Shown: positions 45,392 through 59,997 of the stretch, in pieces
Numbering within the stretch: position 1 is the first letter of the stretch
Layout of the letters: the number at the start of each line of letters is the position of its first letter
Assembly: GCF_053078305.1 (NCBI RefSeq)
Contig: NZ_CP166879.1
Direction: 5' to 3' (one strand)
DNA: 64,000 bases
The notes under the pieces: generated by a model
What the model was told of the DNA's origin: nothing
Database searches by the model: none
Seen by the model: the letters and a program-made list of their open reading frames with translations, nothing else
Made by a program: the position numbers and the translations under genes

Positions 45392-46603
45392 TTAATGATT
45401 ATCTTCAAACTCTTCCAAAACATATTGAGCATGAAATTGAATACAGGGCCAGGATGAAACTAAACCAGCGCGAGCAGTGGGTACTTCATTGGCGGTGATG
45501 GTGCAAAACCCTCTTCCTGGTGCCATTTCTTTTGCTATGGCTTCAACCAGCTCTGGATGATGACTAAGGACAAACTCTAACGGGGTGTAATCTAAGGGTA
45601 AATGACGTCCGTGGTCCCGAAATGCCAGATATGGAGCTGTTACTCCACGAAGCAAAATTTCTACAGGGAGCTGGGAAATGCGTTCTACCAATAAATTCAT
45701 ATGCCCAAGCCGCGCTATAGCCGCTGCAGCCCAACAGCGGTTACTCCCATCGGCTGTTTGATCGTCCAGCAGGCTTGTCAAAACAGCAATCACATCCTCA
45801 TTAGATTCATTAATTTCTGCAATCAATTTACAGGCATTCCATGCTTTGTCTGCATTTTTAACTTCTTGCAGCAAAGCAGGTAACGCCAGTTGACCTAGTT
45901 GTTTGAGTAATACTTCGTAATCGTCTAAAAGTAGACCCGGCGTTTTTCTGCCAAATATTTGCGCGATTAATTCTGCTATCCGTGCTTGTGAAGGCAAACT
46001 TTTCAGATATTGCCTCTCCTGTTCAGCCTGAGAATATTGAGGAAAATATTGCAATATTTGTTTTTTTGTCAGACTTAACGGGATCAACTCACCAACCTCA
46101 TCAGAGGCTATGGCGATAAAGTTTTTCTCCACTACCCCTTCACGTAAGAGTTGTAGTCGTGCTTTTTTGGCTGCTTTCGGAAAAACACGCAGGAATTGCG
46201 CGTACACCTCATACCAGGCATCAAATGTTCCATTAATAGCAGCGAACTCATGGCATTCATTAGCCCATTGTTCGCATTCTTCGTTAGGTTCATCATTGTA
46301 CTTATGGTCCGCAGGCGACCAGCGTAAGTCCTGTGTGAGTTTTTCTACGTTTTGTGTAAATCCATTTTTCTGATAAGCAGTAACAATAGAGGCCAGGCTT
46401 TCCTCAGTGCCAACTGCCAGACAAGGCCAGTCAATGATGTCCCCATCCCCATAAAAACAATGAAACATGGCACCATAGATATGTTGGCATGGGTGTTCCT
46501 GATGTATATGTTTAACGGAAGCTACCATGTAATTAATGGCAGCCGTTTCCATCCCTTTCCAGTCAAATTGTACTTGCTTCATAAAGCGGTCCGTGTAAGG
46601 CAA
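45392..46603 (-). CDS. Hypothetical protein; C-terminal region resembles HEAT/armadillo-type helical repeats
   Basis: Uninterrupted 403-aa frame convergent with narV; no recognisable catalytic motif. Confidence 0.6.
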   Translation of the reverse strand: MPYTDRFMKQVQFDWKGMETAAINYMVASVKHIHQEHPCQHIYGAMFHCFYGDGDIIDWPCLAVGTEESLASIVTAYQKNGFTQNVEKLTQDLRWSPADHKYNDEPNEECEQWANECHEFAAINGTFDAWYEVYAQFLRVFPKAAKKARLQLLREGVVEKNFIAIASDEVGELIPLSLTKKQILQYFPQYSQAEQERQYLKSLPSQARIAELIAQIFGRKTPGLLLDDYEVLLKQLGQLALPALLQEVKNADKAWNACKLIAEINESNEDVIAVLTSLLDDQTADGSNRCWAAAAIARLGHMNLLVERISQLPVEILLRGVTAPYLAFRDHGRHLPLDYTPLEFVLSHHPELVEAIAKEMAPGRGFCTITANEVPTARAGLVSSWPCIQFHAQYVLEEFEDNH

Positions 46604-49613: not shown

Positions 49614-50594
49614 CCAGGGCAAGATTACGAAAGCCTTCTCCCCGCAAGGACTGACGCCAGGTAGTTTCTGTCCATGGCTGCTTTTCGCATCTTACGTCTT
49701 AACCCTGCCTTGAATACCTTATCATTCGTCAAAATATTAATAGCAATGTGCCGTATCCCTGAAAATAATTCTGCTGCATTTCCTCTTCTTATTTTGCAGT
49801 CGTCTTCATTCATTACCACGTCCAGACGCCAGTGCAGCTTATTCTCCACGTGCCAGTGGTTTCGGATTGCTGTGGCGAACTTCTCTGCGGTTAAATCAGC
49901 AGAACTGATATAATATCTGACCGTCATTTCTGGCTCTTTCTTTTGTTCTGCTATTATTGAGCGAAATGAGACTGCCATGCATAATTTCTTCAGCCCTTTC
50001 CATTCAAACGTGAAATCAATAAGTTCATCAGGGATATCGCAGACAATATGGAGACGGATTTTAATGACATGAATCGCTCCCCTGCGGCGACTCTTGTCAT
50101 AAGAGTGCCGGAGCGTTTTTCCATCAATTGCAATGACGTCTTTATCATCTGAAGAATGGCAGTCACGCATCCAGTTAATAAAGCACTCGTGAAATTTTGC
50201 AGGACTGATACAGGATACAACTCTGGCAATGGTATCGTGAACAGGAATACCATTTTCAAAATCACCATATTGCTTCAAAAAATCGAGATGTGTTTCCCCA
50301 AAATCCTCTATATCTTCCCAACCTTCTGCACCAGAAACAACGGCACAAATAATCAACAGTAGAATATCCGATAATTTATGTTCCACTTTCCAGGCTTGTC
50401 TGTAATCGGGGATAATAGAAATATGTTCCATCAATTTTTTAAGTTCCATTTTGTTTCCTTAATTATGTAAGGAGTATTTGATCATGTATAAGCAATAAAA
50501 AACAGCTTTAGGTAATGAGGAACATATCAATTTTTAAACATAAAATGCGAATTATTTAGTACAAAAAGTGTACTTCCGATGATCTTTCCCTGCC
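49614..50594 (-). mobile_element. ydcC: H-repeat (ISAs1-family) element copy 1, transposase with internal deletion
   Basis: 274-aa frame (49625..50449) aligns to both ends of the roughly 378-aa H-repeat transposase but lacks about 100 central residues (junction [17 protein letters not shown]). Confidence 0.75.
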
Positions 50595-50862
50595 ATTAAA
50601 TAATGTCTTATTTGACCTTGCCAACATACAACAAAATAATTGAAATATATTCAAAATTAATTTAAACATTCATCAGGCGTCCTTTTCTAAAAAACCTAAT
50701 CATTTAATGGTTAAATTACAATCAAACAAACAAAGTAAACTGGAATTATAGTTGTGGTGCACTTCACGATTTTAGCATTCTTGCTCCTACATTTATACTC
50801 TCTGCCGCGGAAATTTGTTCTCGAAACTTAACTAAACCCAATCAATCATCCTTGCCTTATCG

Positions 50863-51366
50863 TTACTTGAATTTATCAAGACATTTATCATTGCTGACAC
50901 TTTCAATATTTATATGATATACAGTTCCTGTGTTTGAGATATATACTTCCTTAAGCTTATCAGTTTTACTCTCATTATTATAAAAGTAGCCCCCGATAAT
51001 TTTATTCTTCTTTGATATATAAGTGACAGTGTCAGTATGAACTCCACCATTTATTGTCATAATGAATGAGGCATCCAAGTTCATCGTACTTTCCCCCTTA
51101 AAATATATTTTACCATTAGAAATCACTTTGGTCTCAGAAACACCGTTAGGCTCGTCATTACTAATTAATATAAGTAAATCTACCATTTCGGATTTTTTAT
51201 CTCTTTCTTTATAACCACCAATATCATCCAGGATATTATTTGACACTTTTCCACAAAGCATCACTGAGTAATTATTCAAATTTTTGAGTTGAGAGCACTT
51301 TGCCACAAAAGAGAATGAAATAAATATCAAACCTACCGAAATGATTATTGTTTTTTTAAAATTCAT
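50863..51366 (-). CDS. Exported small protein, candidate immunity protein for the upstream effector
   Basis: 167 aa with N-terminal signal peptide MNFKKTIIISVGLIFISFSFVAKCS; 4 bp downstream of the effector stop; about 27% GC. Confidence 0.55.
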   Translation of the reverse strand: MNFKKTIIISVGLIFISFSFVAKCSQLKNLNNYSVMLCGKVSNNILDDIGGYKERDKKSEMVDLLILISNDEPNGVSETKVISNGKIYFKGESTMNLDASFIMTINGGVHTDTVTYISKKNKIIGGYFYNNESKTDKLKEVYISNTGTVYHINIESVSNDKCLDKFK

Positions 51367-51370
51367 TGTT

Positions 51371-53449
51371 TTAAAGAATCCTTATGTAATTAAGTGGAGG
51401 TGTTATTTCATCATTCAATACATACCAAGAATGCTCAAATGCTGGCCAACGCACTAAATCGAAGCCATCTGCTGCTGGGTTTATTCGCCGTGTAACTTCT
51501 CTGGCATCTGACAAACTACATCCTTTATCCGCCCAATAATTAACGCCTAAACTACCACTAGGTGTCAATCGATGGCTTACCATTATGTATTTTTGCTTAC
51601 TTGCCCAAAAGTATCCCCCGGCATCGCAAGAAAAATAGGCATTTTCAACTGGGAGTTGGTTATTGGGTTCTGTAGTAAAAAAATCATCATCTGACGGATT
51701 TCTATACTTTCCATAATTTCTATAATTCTCACGACCAGTTAGATGTATGGTACCTCTGCCTTTAAATCTTGCACCATCACCAACAACATTATTTCCAAGC
51801 TTAAGTCCCTGTTCTGTTCCTGGCTCATACATATCAAAATAACTCGAATCACCATTCTCTATAAAAGACGCAAATCTGCCTGTTTCTCTCGCCATCTGAC
51901 CGAAATAATGCGCAATCCGCAATGGGGTTGTAATTAAGTACTTCCTTAGTGACTTTGACAGTTCATTTTTCAACCCTGCAGGTCTTATCACCTCACCACT
52001 GCTATTTTGTCCTTGGCTAGTAATCCGCTCAATTAGAGTGTCTTTACTTAATGGTCTTGTAAGTTCTGATGTCATGGGATAAGCATTTTGATAACGTCTT
52101 ACCACACTTATAATATCATTTTCTCCTAACCACCCACATTTCCTGAAATGTGCAATAAACTGCCTGGGATCAAAATGCCATACACGCCTGGCAGGTAACG
52201 GATTATCTACCAAACAAAGCGCCTTACAGTGTTCTATCAGCAAATCCAGGTCAGGCTCTGTCATCGGCTTACTCAATACGTCATTGGGTGATTTCAGCCA
52301 CTCAAACCGTGATTCCACGGTGGCGCTGTCCCATTCTAGCGGAAAATGACAAATCATCCGACTTAGGTCATTGCGGGTTGTACACAGGATTGTTGGTGAA
52401 TTGCACTGGCTGTTGGTGTCCGCATCATCGTTCACCAGTTTCCACCCTGTCCAGTGTGGAAAATCACCGTCGCTGTAAACCCTGATATCTCTCGCCCCTA
52501 AGTTAACAACGCCTTTACCCTGTGGCGTATTGATTGTTCGCCACAGCGGCGCATCCGCCGGGACTAATTCTTCATATTCTGTATTAACAACCCGACCAAA
52601 ACGCAGCATCTCATAACCGGCACTTGGGCTTTTCGGATAGAGTTGCAGCGCGTAGGAATAGAGATTGTATTCATAATCCTTACCATCAGCATTAATCAAG
52701 GGAGAACCTACTTCAGTATAGGTATCACTCAGCACTTCATGCTGCTGACGCGTCACCATCGTACAATTGCCTTTATCAAAACTCATTGTGACATACAATG
52801 GCACGCTGGTTCTTTGTACCGGACTGTTGTTCGCAAGCGAGTTTTCTTCCGGCATGTCCCCATAAATCGGTGTTCCGGCAGGGAGATAAAAATGACTATC
52901 ACCGTAAACCACATCAGTTCGTCCATCTTTATTCAGGTCTGTTTCCGGTGATATTCTTCCTGTGATTTTCTGAATGTTTTCATCATCACAAAAAATCTGA
53001 AAATGAAAGGCGTTCTGTCCGTCCACCATCCCTGCTGCACCAACCGGTTCTTTCCGGTATAGCGTGTTTCCCGGCTGCACATTACTGTCAATGCTTCTCA
53101 GGTGCATATATAATGAGTAATAGACGATTTTACCCTCTTCTCCACTACCGATTTCTGTTTCATGTTTTATCAGAACATAGCCTTTATCCGTAACTCCGTT
53201 ATAATTTAACGGAGGAACTGTATTTTCCGCTGGTTCTGGCTGGCGTATTGAAATAACCTTCCCATCGGCAATACACCTAACAGTCTCTGACAGATTGCCG
53301 TTCAAATGAACTCCACCATGCCAAGAACGACCGCTATTCATTGGGAAATTTCTTTCTGGATCAACAGACATCATTCTGTTTACCCAGTCAGAGTCTTTTT
53401 CAGTGTCTATATGCGCATGCAATATTGGAGGGCTGATTATCATTATCAA
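51371..53449 (-). CDS. Candidate T6SS peptidoglycan-hydrolase effector: M23-like domain plus GH19/lysozyme-like C-terminal domain
   Basis: M23-like block HGGVHL…ADGKVIS…YYSLYMHLRS…GAAGMVDGQNAFHFQIF; GH19-like block YFGQMARETG…GDGARFKGRGTIHLTGRENYRNYG; first gene downstream of vgrG. Confidence 0.6.
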   Translation of the reverse strand: MIMIISPPILHAHIDTEKDSDWVNRMMSVDPERNFPMNSGRSWHGGVHLNGNLSETVRCIADGKVISIRQPEPAENTVPPLNYNGVTDKGYVLIKHETEIGSGEEGKIVYYSLYMHLRSIDSNVQPGNTLYRKEPVGAAGMVDGQNAFHFQIFCDDENIQKITGRISPETDLNKDGRTDVVYGDSHFYLPAGTPIYGDMPEENSLANNSPVQRTSVPLYVTMSFDKGNCTMVTRQQHEVLSDTYTEVGSPLINADGKDYEYNLYSYALQLYPKSPSAGYEMLRFGRVVNTEYEELVPADAPLWRTINTPQGKGVVNLGARDIRVYSDGDFPHWTGWKLVNDDADTNSQCNSPTILCTTRNDLSRMICHFPLEWDSATVESRFEWLKSPNDVLSKPMTEPDLDLLIEHCKALCLVDNPLPARRVWHFDPRQFIAHFRKCGWLGENDIISVVRRYQNAYPMTSELTRPLSKDTLIERITSQGQNSSGEVIRPAGLKNELSKSLRKYLITTPLRIAHYFGQMARETGRFASFIENGDSSYFDMYEPGTEQGLKLGNNVVGDGARFKGRGTIHLTGRENYRNYGKYRNPSDDDFFTTEPNNQLPVENAYFSCDAGGYFWASKQKYIMVSHRLTPSGSLGVNYWADKGCSLSDAREVTRRINPAADGFDLVRWPAFEHSWYVLNDEITPPLNYIRIL

Positions 53450-53590: not shown

Positions 53591-55737
53591 CTACGAGAAC
53601 ATGAACTTCACTCTGGTCTCATCATTACCGATATCATCATCAGTATTACTATCCGTATCATTAGTGACTAAAGTGTTCAGGACAGTGGGTTGCAGTGTCG
53701 GTACCGGTGTCCCCGGACTCCCCCCACCATTAAGATTTATCTTCGGCCCCACTATATCCACGCCGCCCGGCTGAATAACGATAAACGAGCCACCCACCTT
53801 CAGGCTTATCCGGCTGCTGCTCTCCAGCACGATATCCCCGTCCACCTTTATCCCCAGCGCGCCACTCACCTTCCTCGCCAGGTCCCCCTTCACCACCAGG
53901 CTGTGTTTCCCCTCCACCAGACTGATATGGTTCCCCGTCGTCTTATGCTCCTGCTTCCCTTCCACCGTCACTTTACGGTCGTTTCTGACGTACAGACCGT
54001 CATCGTGACTCACGCTCACCGTCCGGTCATTCGTCACCTTCAGAGTCTGGTCATTACGTACTGTGATACGCCGGTCGTTCGCCACCGTGATACTCTGGTC
54101 GTGGCCCCCTCTTTTTTTGTACCGACCTGAACCGTCTGGCCCTTCACCACCGTTATCTTCTGGTCGTTACCAATGGTTTCCGTGTGGTCATGCTTCACGT
54201 CCGTCGTCCGGTCGTTGAGCACTTCCGTATCCATGTTCTTCTGCGCATGGATATACACCTGCTCATTACTGGTGGCGTCTTCAAACCGCAGCTCGTTAAA
54301 TCCGCTTCCTTTATAGGTTTTTGACCGGATGGTCATCTGCGTCTTCGTTCCCGGCAGGTCGCCCGGCGAACGGTTGTCCTCATGGTACGTCCGCCCCATG
54401 ATTATCGGCTGGTCCGGGTCGCCGTTCAGGAAGTCCACTATCACCTCCTGACCCACCCGCGGTATCGCCAGATTACCGAACCCCGGCCCCGCCCACGCCT
54501 GCGATACACGCACCCAGCATGAACTCGCCTCCGTCATCCCGTGATAACGGTCCCAGTGGAACTTCACCCGTACCCGGCCATGTTCATCGCAGAAGATTTC
54601 CTCTCCCGCAGGCCCGGTGACAATGGTGCTCTGTGGCCCGTCCACCTTCGGTTTGCTTTGCAGCCGTGGACGCCACGTCCGGTCTGCCGGTATCACCTCT
54701 AACTGATTTCCCAGTGTGGTTCCTCTCCCCTGGCTGCCGTGCAACGCCTGCGGCTGGCTTCCTGACAGTATGCTCTGTACCACCTGCCATTCACGGTTCA
54801 GCATCTTCTGCGGATGCCCCGTCAGCGTAAACCGCGTTCCCGGCCACAGCTTCGGTGAATTACTCTGCCCTGTGGCCTTTTCCGCATCACTGCGCAGGCT
54901 GTCCATCTGATACAGCGTGAAATCCTTGCCGTGCTGCTCATCCTTGAACCTTCCCGGATAATCAAATATCTCGTACTGCGCGTGCTGTCCGTTCAGCCTC
55001 TCACCCTGCTGTTCGTATATCCCCGGCCAGTCCGGCACCTTAAACGTGTAATCCTGACTCTGCACCGACGACGGGCGGACATGCGCCTCATAACGGAACA
55101 TACTGAGACACTCCGTCTCCGCTCCTGCCGATGTGTCCGGGTTAAACGGAAGCTCTCCCGCCTGTGACAGCCCCGCCACATCGTCGCACAGCGTCAGCTT
55201 CTGCTCCGGGCTGTCCGCCGCAAACCGCTCAAAGAAGAAAATCCCCTCCTCCGCCCACAGCCGGGACAGAAACGCCAGGTCGCTCTCTCCGTACTGGACA
55301 CAGAACTCCCGCGCCGGATGGTCCTCATAAAACAGCGGCGTCCACTCCGTGACGCCGTTCTCGTTCAGTAACGTGGCCGATATCGTCCGGATATCCTGCT
55401 GCTGAAAAATACGAAAGTTCTGCCGCAGCCCGCACCGCCATAACGGCGGCTCAATACGCAGGTGATAACGCATCTGCCAGCCGTTGTTCTCCTGCATGCC
55501 AAAGCCCGCCACCACGCCAGTGACATAACGCAGCGGAATGACGCCCTGCCAGATGGTCAGCGTTGCGTTCTTCTCCAGCAGCATCTCCGCCGTCTGCATA
55601 AAAGAGTCGCTGGCAACATCCACACTCATCACAAACGGATAAGACTGGTTCTGGATTAACCTGAAATTCACCACTGCAAAGGTGTCCGGCTCCTGGCCGT
55701 CAACCTCCAGCGTAAAGCGAAGACCTTTTAAGGACAT
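53591..55737 (-). pseudogene. vgrG: vgrG (T6SS spike) copy 1, frameshifted
   Basis: ORFs 54040..55737 and 53591..54085 are consecutive VgrG segments in different frames; shift maps to the C5 run at 54105-54109 (N-frame KKEGATT, C-frame GGHDQSITVANDRR; copy 2 reads KKEGGHDQ). Confidence 0.75.
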
Positions 55738-55755: not shown

Positions 55756-56040
55756 TCAGCCTATATTTACCGTGCCGCCACCAATAACCACGCCGCCGCA
55801 GTCAATGGCATCACCGGTTCTGGCGGCGGGCAGGCCGTCAATAAAGACGGTTGAAGAGCCTCTGGCGATTTTTCGGGGATGAGGTGGATGCTTCGGTTTA
55901 GCATGCGGCGTCGGCGGATCTCCCTGACGGGCTGCGGGGAGACCATCGATAAAAACGGTGGATGACCCGGCGGTGATGACGGTCTCGTAATAACCGTCGT
56001 GCTGAGTGCCTTTGTCGGTGAGTTTGGCTGCTAAAGGCAT
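55756..56040 (-). CDS. PAAR-domain protein (T6SS spike tip), copy 1
   Basis: 94 aa with two GLPAAR(Q/T)GD motifs; 18 bp upstream of vgrG copy 1. Confidence 0.85.
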   Translation of the reverse strand: MPLAAKLTDKGTQHDGYYETVITAGSSTVFIDGLPAARQGDPPTPHAKPKHPPHPRKIARGSSTVFIDGLPAARTGDAIDCGGVVIGGGTVNIG

Positions 56041-56395: not shown

Positions 56396-57376
56396 CAGGG
56401 CAAGATTACGAAAACCCGCTCCCCGCAAGGACTGACGTCAGGTAGTTTCTGTCCATGGCTGCTTTTCGCATCTTACGTCTTAACCCTGCCCTGGATACCT
56501 TATCATTCATCAAAATATTAATAGCAATGTGCCGTATCCCTGAAAATAATTCTGCTGCGTTTCCTCTTCTTATTTTGCAGTCGTCTTCATTCATTACCAC
56601 GCCCAGACGCCAGTGCAGCTTATTCTCCACGTACCAGTGGTTTCGGATTGCTGTGGCGAACTTCTCTGCGGTTAAATCAGCAGAACTGATATAATATCTG
56701 ACCGTCATTTTGGGATTTTTCTTTTGTTCTGCTATTATTGAGCGAAATGAGACTGCCATGCATAATTTCTTCAGCCCTTTCCATTCAAACGTGAAATCAA
56801 TAAGTTCATCAGGGATATCGCAGACAATATGGAGACGGATTTTAATGACATGAATCACTCCCCTGCGGCGACTCTTGTCATAAGAGTGCCGGAGCGTTTT
56901 TCCATCAATTGCAATGACGTCTTTATCATCTGAAGAATGGCAGTCACGCATCCAGTTAATAAAGCACTCGTGAAATTTTGCAGGACTGATACAGGATACA
57001 ACACTGGCAATGATATCGTGAACAGGAATACCATTTTCAAAATCACCATATCACTTCAAAACATCGGGATGTGTTTCCCCAAAATCCTCTATATCTCCCA
57101 GTCTTATGCACCAGAAATAACGGCGCAAATAGTTAACAGATAGAATATCTGGCAATTTATGTTCCACTTTCCAGGCTTGCCTGTAATCGGGGATAACAGA
57201 AATATGTTCCATCAATTTTTTAAGTTCCATTTTGTTCTCCTTAATTATGTAAGGGGTATTTGATCATGTGTAAGCAATAAAAAACAGCTTCAGGCAATAA
57301 GGAATATCTCAATTTTCAAACATAAAATGTGAATTATTTAGTACAAAAAGTGTACTTCTGATGATCTTTCCCTGCC
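56396..57376 (-). mobile_element. H-repeat (ISAs1-family) element copy 2, degraded
   Basis: About 93-95% identical to copy 1 over about 980 bp with the same internal deletion junction ([17 protein letters not shown]), plus extra frameshifts splitting the frame (ORFs 56406..56951 and 56855..57049). Confidence 0.75.
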
Positions 57377-57453: not shown

Positions 57454-57933
57454 TTAAAGATTGCCATCTTCATTGCCGACGAAATAAATATCAAATGAAC
57501 ACTCCAATCCAAGATTAGCCATTATTTTCATCTGCTCAGGCCATAAAGTTGGCCCACCGTGCCAATTCAATGATCTCCAGGTACAGTCAATACCCATTGA
57601 AATATTTTCTAATGCTTGCAATTTTGCAATATTTGATGATTTAGGTCCAAGTTTGTGAAGTAGCCAATCCAGATGTTCTCGAATATCTTTCGAGTTCACT
57701 AGATTTTCTGACGAGAGCATCCAATATGAATTTTTTGCATATCTTTTCTTTCCCGATAGAGTAATAATTTCATCTCCTTTTATATTAATTGATGTTGGCT
57801 CAAGTTCTAAGTGAATACTTATTTCATTAGGGTGAGTATTACCTGTGTAAATCAAGAGGCTAGCATAGCACTCATCACAACTTGGATATTCATGAGATAT
57901 CGGGGTAAGCCTTGATTGTATATTCTTAATCAT
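57454..57933 (-). CDS. Candidate immunity protein for the PAAR-like toxin
   Basis: 159 aa, no signal peptide; start overlaps the toxin stop by 4 bp (ATGA). Confidence 0.5.
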   Translation of the reverse strand: MIKNIQSRLTPISHEYPSCDECYASLLIYTGNTHPNEISIHLELEPTSINIKGDEIITLSGKKRYAKNSYWMLSSENLVNSKDIREHLDWLLHKLGPKSSNIAKLQALENISMGIDCTWRSLNWHGGPTLWPEQMKIMANLGLECSFDIYFVGNEDGNL

Positions 57934-59063
57934 AAATAATCCTCTATGTTTCCTAAAATATTTCCTGAGTCATCAATATAATCACCATTATCAAGTATTC
58001 GACCATGGTGATCACCTCGTAAGCGTAAATCTTTTTTCAACTTTTCTAAAGCTTTCCCCCATTCTCTCCTGTTAATATTTTTACCAAAAAATTCATTTAA
58101 CTCCCTGGCAGTTCTTGCCTCAAGAGTATTACCTCCAGTTTGTAATACTCTCGGAACTCTTCCCGCAGCGCCAACGCTTGGAGGAACAGGAATAGGCAAT
58201 CCATTTGCATCCAGCACAATTTTAGCACCGCTCCTCCCCATTCTGCCAACCGATTTTATTGCAAACTTCGCTGAAAACTTGACCAAACCTTTCACCAGTG
58301 CTCCAACCCCGGTCATAAGTTCCAGCCATGGCTCAACCTCCATCGCCATTGCTTGGGTTTCATTGGCAGGTTTCAACAATGGCTCTCTAGGATCAATAGT
58401 TTCCATTACCTCCCTGTTGGTCTCATTCGCCCGCTCCATAATTTGGGTATCCATCCCCAACCCTCTCGCCAGAGCAATATTACTTTCCATTTGGGCAATG
58501 TCATTTTGCATCTGACCTTTGGCAATCAATGCACCCAACATATACCAGCCATTAATAAATGCCTTGCCTAATCCTATCATTGCATCTGCTTCTTGCTTTT
58601 TGGACTCAAGCTCAAACTCTTGCTGTTGTCTTTGCAGTTCCAGATACCTGGCCCAAAGCGATGATTCTTTAACAGGTATTATCTGATTTGGCAGGTTTGT
58701 CTGGGTATACAGTTTTCCAACAGTATTATCATTATTCATGGCAACCAGCGAAAGATTCCTGGCTACCGGCTTTCCCTTGCACTTTATATGATCCACGCCT
58801 GTCAGTATCCGGCAGTCACCGCTGCCCAGACTGGTGCCAGAACTGACACCTTTCCCGGCATTACTTCGTGTACCTGCAATAATACAGTCCACGGTCAGTA
58901 CTGGATTGCCCCGTGCCCTGACATTGCTGATATAAATTTTCTCATGTGTCAGGTCCTGAAAGCTGTCAAACGGCACTATCGCATCACCAACCTTGCAGAC
59001 ATCAGGCGCAATACATATCGCAACGTACTTCGATTCACGACAACCAATATGATTTTCAGCCAT
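57930..59063 (-). CDS. Candidate T6SS effector: N-terminal PAAR-like (DUF4150-type) domain with C-terminal toxin domain of unassigned family
   Basis: N-terminus CRESKYVAICIAPDVCKVGDAIVPFDSF fits the PDVC…P.P(F/Y) PAAR-like pattern; C-terminal 100 aa basic with a DHHG…N…N segment. Confidence 0.55.
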   Translation of the reverse strand: MAENHIGCRESKYVAICIAPDVCKVGDAIVPFDSFQDLTHEKIYISNVRARGNPVLTVDCIIAGTRSNAGKGVSSGTSLGSGDCRILTGVDHIKCKGKPVARNLSLVAMNNDNTVGKLYTQTNLPNQIIPVKESSLWARYLELQRQQQEFELESKKQEADAMIGLGKAFINGWYMLGALIAKGQMQNDIAQMESNIALARGLGMDTQIMERANETNREVMETIDPREPLLKPANETQAMAMEVEPWLELMTGVGALVKGLVKFSAKFAIKSVGRMGRSGAKIVLDANGLPIPVPPSVGAAGRVPRVLQTGGNTLEARTARELNEFFGKNINRREWGKALEKLKKDLRLRGDHHGRILDNGDYIDDSGNILGNIEDYL

Positions 59064-59997
59064 GAGGTCCCCTCTGCTCCGTCGTCAAAACAATACGTTG
59101 TGGAAGAGAATCCACGGGGAGCGTTAAGCGCCAGAGTAGTGTTAGTTGCTCATCGTCTGTGTGGATGGTCAGTGTGTCAGCCAACAATGGGCGCAGTTCT
59201 ACGTTTTTATCAGAGCGGTAAAACAAATACGCCAATAGTCTAATATCTGGAAGGAAACAAATTTGTTCCATTTTAGAAGGTAATAGGCCGTTCAATATAA
59301 TTTTTTCATTGCCAATTAAATAACCATCGTATTGTTGTTCTGGTGGAGAATAATTCATGAATGCAAAATCGAATTCATCTGGATAAAAAGGTTGAACAGT
59401 CTTTTGCCACTGTTCTGTAAAACCTCTGGCATAGCGCAATCGTGAAGGCCAGCTACGGCAAATAGCTCCTGGTGAGGCAGATAACTGTGGAGCTGGACAG
59501 GGCGATTTATCGCCAAGCGTTATCAGGGAGGGAATAACAATGCCTACAGGATTAAATTCACTGGCTGACGCCAGTTCATGGCGTAACAGTACCCGATCAG
59601 TTAATTCAGGTTCGCTAAGTTGCCAGCGGTTAGATATATATTGCCATTGGCAAGGGCCACATATATCAAATTGGCGCTGAAGATTACCAACCTGTAAACT
59701 GGCCTGCCATCGAGTGGTTTCCCCGGTGGCATGCCATGCGTGTCCATTTAATAAAACATCTGCCCTGACTTTTCTGCAAACCAAATCGGTTGCTGTTTTA
59801 AGACTGCTGCTTTCCGGTTCGCCGTACCAGGAGTCGGTCATCAGTGGCAGTCGCTGCTCATCCGCAATCAGACAGAGACCGCCGCTATATGAAAAATCAA
59901 ATGTCTGATTAACTACCACTACTGTGAATAACTCACCATAATATCCCACTTTTTCGAACTGAAAGTGAGGTAAACCAGTTTCATTTTCAATATTCAT
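59056..59997 (-). CDS. Candidate DUF2169-type adaptor protein
   Basis: 313 aa between vgrG and a PAAR-like effector, overlapping the effector start by 8 bp; family assignment is by context and size. Confidence 0.5.
   Translation of the reverse strand: MNIENETGLPHFQFEKVGYYGELFTVVVVNQTFDFSYSGGLCLIADEQRLPLMTDSWYGEPESSSLKTATDLVCRKVRADVLLNGHAWHATGETTRWQASLQVGNLQRQFDICGPCQWQYISNRWQLSEPELTDRVLLRHELASASEFNPVGIVIPSLITLGDKSPCPAPQLSASPGAICRSWPSRLRYARGFTEQWQKTVQPFYPDEFDFAFMNYSPPEQQYDGYLIGNEKIILNGLLPSKMEQICFLPDIRLLAYLFYRSDKNVELRPLLADTLTIHTDDEQLTLLWRLTLPVDSLPQRIVLTTEQRGPHG

Follow-up and report, generated by a model that had tools for sequence, protein, structure and literature searches.

A window of 64,000 nucleotides from an Escherichia coli chromosome (contig NZ_CP166879.1) carries on its minus strand the gene for a large protein that is very probably a cargo effector of the E. 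coli type VI secretion system (T6SS), encoded in an orphan PAAR-VgrG-effector-immunity module. More precisely, the protein appears to be a compact chimeric peptidoglycan hydrolase resembling TseP of Aeromonas dhakensis. The gene lies in an uninterrupted open reading frame (ORF) at 51371..53449; the plus-strand translation of the same interval is riddled with stops. Counted from the TTG at 53449 the ORF encodes 692 residues, which is how a preliminary description of the window presented it. The ORF is real, but that description overlooked its strand and its true start codon. The TTG adds two codons, and translation almost certainly begins at the ATG at 53443, giving a coding sequence of 690 residues plus stop (51371..53443, minus strand). 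This start is chosen because the RefSeq protein WP_000587243.1 (690 residues, named 'M23 family metallopeptidase') begins there, an AGGA lies 9 nucleotides upstream, and the resulting N-terminus, MIISPP, is conserved in the effector family (68 homologs). RefSeq annotates WP_000587243.1 in strain PS10-3, within an identical 2.8-kb segment. Residue numbers below refer to the 690-residue protein and are two lower than those of the preliminary description.

The module belongs to an island that lies between pptA and yncG. In minus-strand order it comprises a PAAR gene (55756..56040; NF033420, E 1.7e-45), vgrG (53591..55737), the effector gene, an ORF for a 167-residue protein (50863..51366) and an ISAs1 transposase gene. 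The effector gene is 147 nucleotides downstream of vgrG on the same strand, and in this respect the earlier claim that it directly follows vgrG stands. However, it was overlooked that this vgrG is a pseudogene in the window. Compared with the intact 715-residue VgrG (WP_104773313.1) of strain 33F4, it has a 1-nucleotide deletion in a G-run near 54110 and is split into ORFs of 565 and 164 residues. The 167-residue gene begins 5 nucleotides past the effector stop codon, and its product, in which two Cys residues are conserved, starts with a Sec signal peptide; the effector has no signal peptide. With vgrG before it and a signal-peptide protein after it, the gene has the layout proposed earlier for a T6SS effector acting in the periplasm. 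Neither the effector nor the 167-residue protein was matched by NCBIfam, PADLOC found nothing, an Rfam search of 49.5-57.5 kb gave no match and a promoter and terminator scan performed no better than on shuffled sequence. Two copies of an ISAs1-family (H-repeat) transposase gene bracket the module, at 49625-50449 and, in degraded form, at 56406-56951 (both minus strand). They may mediate shuffling of modules at this locus.

The protein opens with a leader (residues 1-40, MIISPP...DxDW...MP...FP.N; 53324..53443, minus strand), which always stands at residue 1 of family members, the profile match starting there in nearly all of 150 representatives. A variant M23/LytM-like domain follows (residues 42-155; 52979..53320, minus strand). 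The M23 call is weaker by sequence and clear by predicted fold. Pfam PF01551 matches the effector with an independent E-value of 3.3e-4 and 11 of 25 relatives at <=1e-3 (best 8.5e-9). The domain has the LytM-type beta-sheet core, and Foldseek matches it to lysostaphin (E 9e-6). An M23/LytM-like N-terminal fold, as first proposed from the letters of the sequence, is therefore upheld.

The site within this fold is not the usual one. The effector and canonical M23 enzymes (LytM, lysostaphin; PF01551) share the first His of HxxxD, the His of Y-x-H-L, the second His of HxH and an adjoining F-[QE], which in the effector fall in the motifs WHGGVH (H42, H46), YMHL (H114) and NAFHFQIF (H147). In contrast to those enzymes, the effector has His for the Asp of HxxxD (H42-G-G-V-H46), a substitution found in all 104 full-length family representatives clustered at 50% identity. 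It also lacks the first His of HxH (A145-F-H147), as seen when ..APHLHFQRM of lysostaphin is set against ..NAFHFQIF; position 145 varies in the family (R/Q/K/L/A). H42 (53318-53320), H46 (53306-53308) and H147 (53003-53005) are the putative zinc ligands and H114 (53102-53104) the putative catalytic His, all on the minus strand. W41, H42, G44, H46 and H94 occur in 104/104 representatives, H147 in 103/104 and H114 in 102/104, and HxxxH is found in 138 of 150 profile matches. Residue 149 (52997-52999) is Glu in 95/104 and in TseP; it is Gln in 8/104, including the effector and its close enterobacterial relatives, and in lysostaphin. The preliminary description was right that the canonical HxxxD and HxH are absent, the second His of HxH alone being retained, but the label 'degenerate' does not fit. 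Because the His residues are near-invariant across the 104 representatives, the variant site looks selected rather than decayed. Judged by this conservation, the domain is best described as having a metal site of a variant type, with His-His-His where His-Asp-His is canonical, and not as a relic.

What such a site might do is suggested by TseP (Wang et al., eLife 2025, PMC11893102). In that work TseP-N acts as an amidase that depends on Zn, and each of H19A, H23A, H109A, H339A, H359A and E539A significantly lowers its activity. It also binds VgrG2, and by itself it can restore T6SS assembly. The lysozyme TseP-C (crystal structure 8XCL) has E655 (also written E654) and E663 as its catalytic Glu pair, and mutation of the lysozyme catalytic site mitigates the periplasmic toxicity of TseP (Wang et al., 2025). 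A word-indexed search of 5.8 billion proteins with 222 residues of 8XCL did not return TseP, the best match being 54% identical. The stand-in used here is an ortholog from an Aeromonas piscicola genome (L006:4075-6687) with a C-terminal domain 96% identical to that of TseP. With an offset of +26, 11 of the 12 residue numbers in the TseP paper fall on the stated residue type in this ortholog; E654 is one off, on a His.

Both halves of the effector are related to this protein. For the N-terminal domain, hhalign gives 97.2% (E 2.9e-11; residues 27-121 against 30-138) and BLASTP 30% identity over 107 residues, with a further local match of AFHFQIF to AIHMEIF. For the C-terminal domain the corresponding values are 97.6% by hhalign and approximately 28% identity over 71 residues by BLASTP. 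In a low-stringency collinear alignment CHFPLEW of the effector stands opposite KHESEW of the ortholog. TseP H19, H23, H109 and H359, which lie in the TseP motifs WHGGxH (H19, H23), YMH (H109) and xHxE (H359), map to effector H42, H46, H114 and H147. Effector E370 (52334-52336, minus strand) is a tentative counterpart, on sequence grounds, of TseP E539. TseP needs these four His residues for full amidase activity.

The likeness extends to architecture and setting. In both proteins an M23-like domain is followed by a conserved region with an H..EW motif at its end and then by a GH19 lysozyme. Both are encoded directly after vgrG and are followed by a gene for a small signal-peptide protein. Both loci show a step-down in guanine-plus-cytosine (GC) content from vgrG to N-terminal domain to C-terminal domain to immunity gene, reported for tseP by Wang et al. 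(2025) and seen here as 0.57 in vgrG, 0.43 in the N-terminal domain, 0.45 in the middle region, 0.40 in the C-terminal domain and 0.30 in the immunity gene. In both, toxicity or immunity is centred on the lysozyme half. However, the effector has 690 residues against 845 in TseP, and it lacks both the approximately 250-residue insertion that splits the TseP M23 domain between H109 and H359 and the EF-hand. Wang et al. (2025) found no function for the EF-hand motif. An EF-hand search with Pfam found none in the effector or 25 relatives, and perhaps the motif is not a defining feature. The proteins also differ at position 149 (Gln in the effector, Glu in TseP and most of the effector family), and their immunity proteins are unrelated by sequence. 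None of six AFDB50 match accessions of the effector appears in the Foldseek tables of the TseP paper, where the TseP-N list consists mostly of a separate 'EF-hand' family. Names like those of the effector family ('hydroxyethylthiazole kinase', 'M23 family metallopeptidase') occur only far down that list. The effector is a member of a distinct compact subfamily of the TseP class, apart from the closest 'EF-hand' relatives of TseP.

The conservation of the site bears on a simpler explanation, the one raised in the preliminary description, in which the GH19 domain alone would be enzymatic and the M23-like domain, devoid of catalytic activity, would act only in peptidoglycan binding, targeting or loading onto VgrG. 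EnvC and NlpD offer a precedent, since their degenerate LytM domains have no enzymatic activity. In favor of a dead domain, the first His of HxH has been replaced at a variable position (A145), the immunity gene co-varies with the C-terminal domain only, and the module is always at the extreme N-terminus, with another C-terminal domain such as DUF3289 in about 10% of representatives. The TseP results can be read in the same way, since TseP-N binds VgrG2 and is enough for T6SS assembly to be restored, and since the toxicity of TseP hinges on its lysozyme site (Wang et al., 2025). However, degenerate LytM domains lose their metal ligands, whereas here H42, H46, H94, H114 and H147 vary little or not at all over 104 clusters, which is hard to explain without a metal or an active site, and the equivalent TseP residues are required for measured Zn-dependent amidase activity (Wang et al., 2025). 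A dead domain seems fairly unlikely. The proposed binding or targeting role fares better than the proposed loss of function: VgrG binding by TseP-N and an immunity gene that follows only GH19 agree with it, whereas the conserved site argues against a mere relic.

If the domain is active, its chemistry need not be that of an amidase. It might instead be a conventional M23 DD- or LD-endopeptidase that cuts cross-links rather than the bond between N-acetylmuramic acid (MurNAc) and L-Ala. All structurally characterized catalytic M23 domains among the fold matches are endopeptidases (LytM, lysostaphin, ShyA, Csd3), and the amidase assignment comes from a single paper on a distant homolog (Wang et al., 2025). 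The logic would then be nearer to that of Acinetobacter baumannii Tse4, which is described, as cited in PMC11893102, as a bifunctional lytic transglycosylase and endopeptidase. Compared by description, Tse4 and the effector are analogous in that a single T6SS effector would act against both the glycan and the peptide of peptidoglycan, but the enzyme families and the bonds cleaved differ, and no homology between the two is expected. What speaks against an endopeptidase is that TseP and AHA_1849, the only proteins sharing the HxxxH...H...HxE site that have been tested biochemically, set free tri- and tetrapeptides, as an amidase would (Wang et al., 2025). PSPTO_5204 is reported to have done likewise (Wang et al., 2025). 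Moreover, the ligand swap and the lost catalytic His separate the clade of the effector from canonical endopeptidases. An endopeptidase is unlikely; by analogy with TseP-N, the probable chemistry is that of an amidase and not of a Gly-Gly or DD-endopeptidase. A further departure from canonical M23 proteins is the fusion of the domain to a conserved region of approximately 320 residues.

That middle region (residues 156-480; 52004..52978, minus strand) is highly conserved (YEYNLY, LRFGR, DxDFPHW, CxFPxEW), and no Pfam or PDB counterpart was found for it. Modelled alone it has a predicted local distance difference test score (pLDDT) of 59.6, yet it is confident within the full-length AlphaFold 2 model, which has a pLDDT of 88.5 and a predicted TM score of 0.91. 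Full-length structural matches in AFDB50 (TM 0.8-0.96) come from many Gamma- and Betaproteobacteria, including Photorhabdus, Salmonella, Yersinia, Klebsiella, Aquitalea, Cupriavidus, Pseudomonas, Burkholderia and Acinetobacter.

The C-terminal third (residues 481-690; 51374..52003, minus strand) is a domain of the GH19 lysozyme/endolysin type, and here the preliminary description is confirmed well beyond chance. In a phmmer search of PDB sequences the effector matched GH19-type phage endolysins (9ms7, 7e-10) and, weakly, 8xcl. A profile built from 68 family sequences matched 9ms7 at E 4.7e-20 and TseP-C (8xcl) at E 1.9e-13 over residues 16-237 of 244, with plant and bacterial GH19 chitinases further down the same list. 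PHROG endolysin families also match the domain (best E 4.9e-21), and it has the two-lobe alpha-helical GH19 fold. Its catalytic residues stand in the motifs ARETG (E520), IENG (E529) and FKGRGTIHLTGRENY (T569). E520 (51884-51886, minus strand) and E529 (51857-51859, minus strand), the predicted general acid and general base, align with the catalytic Glu pairs of PWe2 (HES..E) and TseP, and their spacing of 9 residues is that of the TseP pair. T569 (51737-51739, minus strand), in FKGRGTIHLTG, occupies the place of the water-positioning Ser/Thr of GRGxxQ[LI][ST], which we take to correspond to Ser120 of barley chitinase. E520 and T569 are invariant in the 68 homologs and E529 is present in at least 90%. 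The Pfam model Glyco_hydro_19 (PF00182) did not match the effector, and among 25 relatives it matched none at <=1e-3 and six at <=0.1. Because PF00182 stays below threshold, GH19 membership rests on fold, PDB profiles and PHROGs. The C-terminal third is nevertheless a GH19-type endolysin fold with E520, E529 and T569 intact. Together with the N-terminal domain it makes the protein the two-domain cell-wall hydrolase first supposed, as far as profiles and predicted folds can tell.

The closest solved structures and the PHROG families of this domain are phage endolysins. This raises the question of whether the gene is a prophage-derived endolysin, or a housekeeping autolysin, that stands beside vgrG by chance. 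The GH19 phage endolysins PWe2 (9MS7), SPN1S (4OK7) and that of P. aeruginosa (9EOI) resemble the effector domain in having a GH19 fold of the compact 'loopless' kind, a catalytic pair spaced E-x8-E and a GRGxxxLT[GH] motif. Unlike them, the effector domain ends a 690-residue protein for which T6SS delivery is inferred and which has a candidate periplasmic immunity partner. There are no phage genes nearby and, as noted, no signal peptide. Each of the five genera examined (Chromobacterium, Yersinia, Buttiauxella, Enterobacter and, with E. coli, Escherichia) has vgrG directly upstream, and in Yersinia and Enterobacter the homolog is inside a core Hcp-ClpV-VgrG...TssM T6SS cluster. A gene for a periplasmic small protein comes next at each locus, and in one relative the N-terminal module is fused behind a DUF2345 VgrG segment. 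On this gene context an endolysin or autolysin is extremely improbable, and the idea was rejected.

The family to which the effector belongs is large. A protein search returned 912 homologs across Enterobacterales and beyond, and a profile search of 1.84 billion cluster representatives gave 157 clusters at E <= 1e-30, the domain starting at residue 1 in nearly all of them. Clustered at 50% identity, the family therefore comprises 157 or more clusters. The N-terminal domain, the middle region and GH19 are all present in 94 of the 104 full-length representatives. The other ten have a different C-terminal domain (P0262, P0266, P0324, P0327, P0330, P0338, P0349, P0356, P0373 and P0384), which in two is DUF3289. 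P0384 is the one behind the DUF2345 VgrG segment, which suggests a VgrG fusion. The homologs include a Chromobacterium protein (P0078) and an E. coli paralog of 787 residues (P0101), which is approximately 42% identical to the effector and far commoner in E. coli. Many members are named 'hydroxyethylthiazole kinase', 'kinase' or 'Pyocin R, lytic enzyme' (e.g., P0018, P0066, P0070, P0073); these names are evidently propagated misannotations. The enterotoxigenic E. coli amidase effector VT1 (GenBank KX118292), reportedly described by Ma et al. in 2018, might be related. Papers on C. violaceum, E. coli ST131 and E. bugandensis have named relatives as putative effectors (PMC9430734, PMC10711316, PMC10763514). 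These relatives share the vgrG-linked position and the domain calls with the effector, and none has been characterized biochemically.

The class is thus already known: RefSeq names the protein, relatives have been mentioned as putative effectors and the class was characterized through TseP in 2025. The effector is not a new kind of system. What is added here, besides the pattern of orphan immunity genes in E. coli, is that the unusual M23 site has been conserved and matches the site in TseP, HxxxH...H...xH being among the most conserved features of the family, and that immunity appears to follow one half of the protein only.

The evidence for the latter lies in the downstream 167-residue gene (29.8% GC), whose product belongs to a small, unnamed family. 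At every locus examined the ORF downstream of the effector homolog encodes a protein with a signal peptide and two conserved Cys residues. Its similarity between loci tracks the GH19 domain and not the N-terminal domain. At locus L009 the small protein is 54% identical, with the effector 81% identical in the C-terminal and 51% in the N-terminal domain. At L010 it is 28% identical, with 65% in the C-terminal and 75% in the N-terminal domain. At L002, L011 and L004 there is no similarity to the 167-residue protein, and the C-terminal domain is at most 53% and the N-terminal domain 44-54% identical. A second line of evidence is distribution. The full effector gene is present in 19 of 5426 complete E. 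coli genomes, and approximately 136 further genomes have, at the pptA-yncG locus, the 167-residue gene with only about 240 bp of the effector 3' end (window 50800-51604). There the gene stands beside other vgrG modules, for example a module with an M35-peptidase in PM06121 (L008:6001-6805). The retained genes are typical orphan immunity genes. On these patterns of sequence, the putative immunity protein most likely acts against the lysozyme domain.

Several observations weigh against reading the protein as a delivered, doubly active hydrolase of the TseP class. The homology to TseP-N is distant, being detectable only over the first half of the M23 domain and in short motifs, and one of the two catalytic His residues of canonical M23 enzymes is missing. 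TseP H339, the only residue whose mutation gives a protein dead as an amidase that still assembles the T6SS, has no counterpart in the effector. A profile of the N-terminal domain found no significant M23 match among PDB sequences (best ShyA, E 0.37), and because of this the M23 assignment rests on Pfam and fold. The top matches of that profile, DARPins (E 0.04), were set aside as spurious. The 167-residue protein has no significant similarity to the TsiP candidate. No immunity determinant tracks the N-terminal domain, which argues that this domain is weakly toxic or non-toxic. Finally, the cognate vgrG is a pseudogene in the window and is truncated in other strains.

Because the cognate vgrG is frameshifted, delivery of the effector in the strain of the window is doubtful. 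The module of this strain could be a remnant in decay, with the effector undelivered and the locus kept mainly for its immunity gene. Besides the deletion in the G-run, RefSeq records vgrG frameshifts in both PS10-3 and 1504D004. The module is flanked by ISAs1 copies, and genomes with only the immunity gene and an effector stub far outnumber those with the full gene. However, the effector ORF is intact and 99-100% identical across 18 genomes, and the PAAR-VgrG-effector-immunity module, vgrG included, is intact in 33F4, ECNB21-M121 and JX21CE8. A second, intact tssI/vgrG approximately 6 kb away in the same island might substitute, and an indel in a G-run could be a sequencing error or reversible. 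Decay in this strain is a real possibility, though we would put it at somewhat less than even.

If the protein is indeed a TseP-like chimeric hydrolase, a plausible sequence of events can be proposed. The effector would be loaded on the VgrG spike encoded upstream and fired into the periplasm of a neighboring Gram-negative cell. There the GH19 domain would cut glycan strands as a lysozyme, with E520 as acid, E529 as base and T569 positioning the water, and this would be the main killing activity. The N-terminal domain would hold zinc by the triad H42, H46 and H147, with H114 as catalytic His, and by analogy with TseP-N would strip peptide stems from MurNAc. Together with the middle region it would probably also provide the contact for VgrG loading and T6SS assembly. 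The periplasmic 167-residue protein would shield the producer and its kin, most likely by blocking the GH19 domain. In the strain of the window, the effector may be stranded unless another VgrG carries it.

Perhaps one could go further. What if the N-terminal 480 residues are an ancient, obligatorily N-terminal T6SS module with a His-His-His MurNAc-L-Ala amidase unlike any solved M23 enzyme, which needs no immunity and onto which lysozyme-immunity cassettes have been swapped? In this scenario, which is speculative and on balance improbable, the real job of the module would be spike loading or local opening of the wall and not killing. The M23 superfamily would thereby gain a new catalytic subclass, and polymorphic T6SS toxins a carrier scaffold of general use.

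On the preferred reading as a compact TseP-like hydrolase, E. coli and many other Enterobacterales gain a compact protein that can be clearly assigned as related to the dual-function TseP. The 690-residue protein offers a smaller, insertion-free scaffold on which to study amidase chemistry on an M23 fold and to engineer lysins, for which TseP-C is a precedent (Wang et al., 2025). The pptA-yncG hotspot, with its approximately 136 orphan-immunity genomes against 19 with the effector, is a natural example of effector loss with immunity kept.

The same island contains a second T6SS cargo module at 57454-59997 (minus strand), reaching approximately 62.3 kb, with PAAR and the intact tssI/vgrG. It also encodes a DUF2169 adaptor (59056-59997), a PAAR-like protein of 377 residues (57930-59063) and a DUF4279 protein (57454-57933), and the latter two are probably another effector-immunity pair. 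This module had no NCBIfam or PADLOC match. Elsewhere in the window, between narI and yddE, is an ORF of 403 residues (45392-46603, minus strand) with no NCBIfam match, which RefSeq lists as a DUF4303 domain protein. The narI-yddE insert is absent from PS10-3 and is complete in only 4 of the 5426 complete E. coli genomes.

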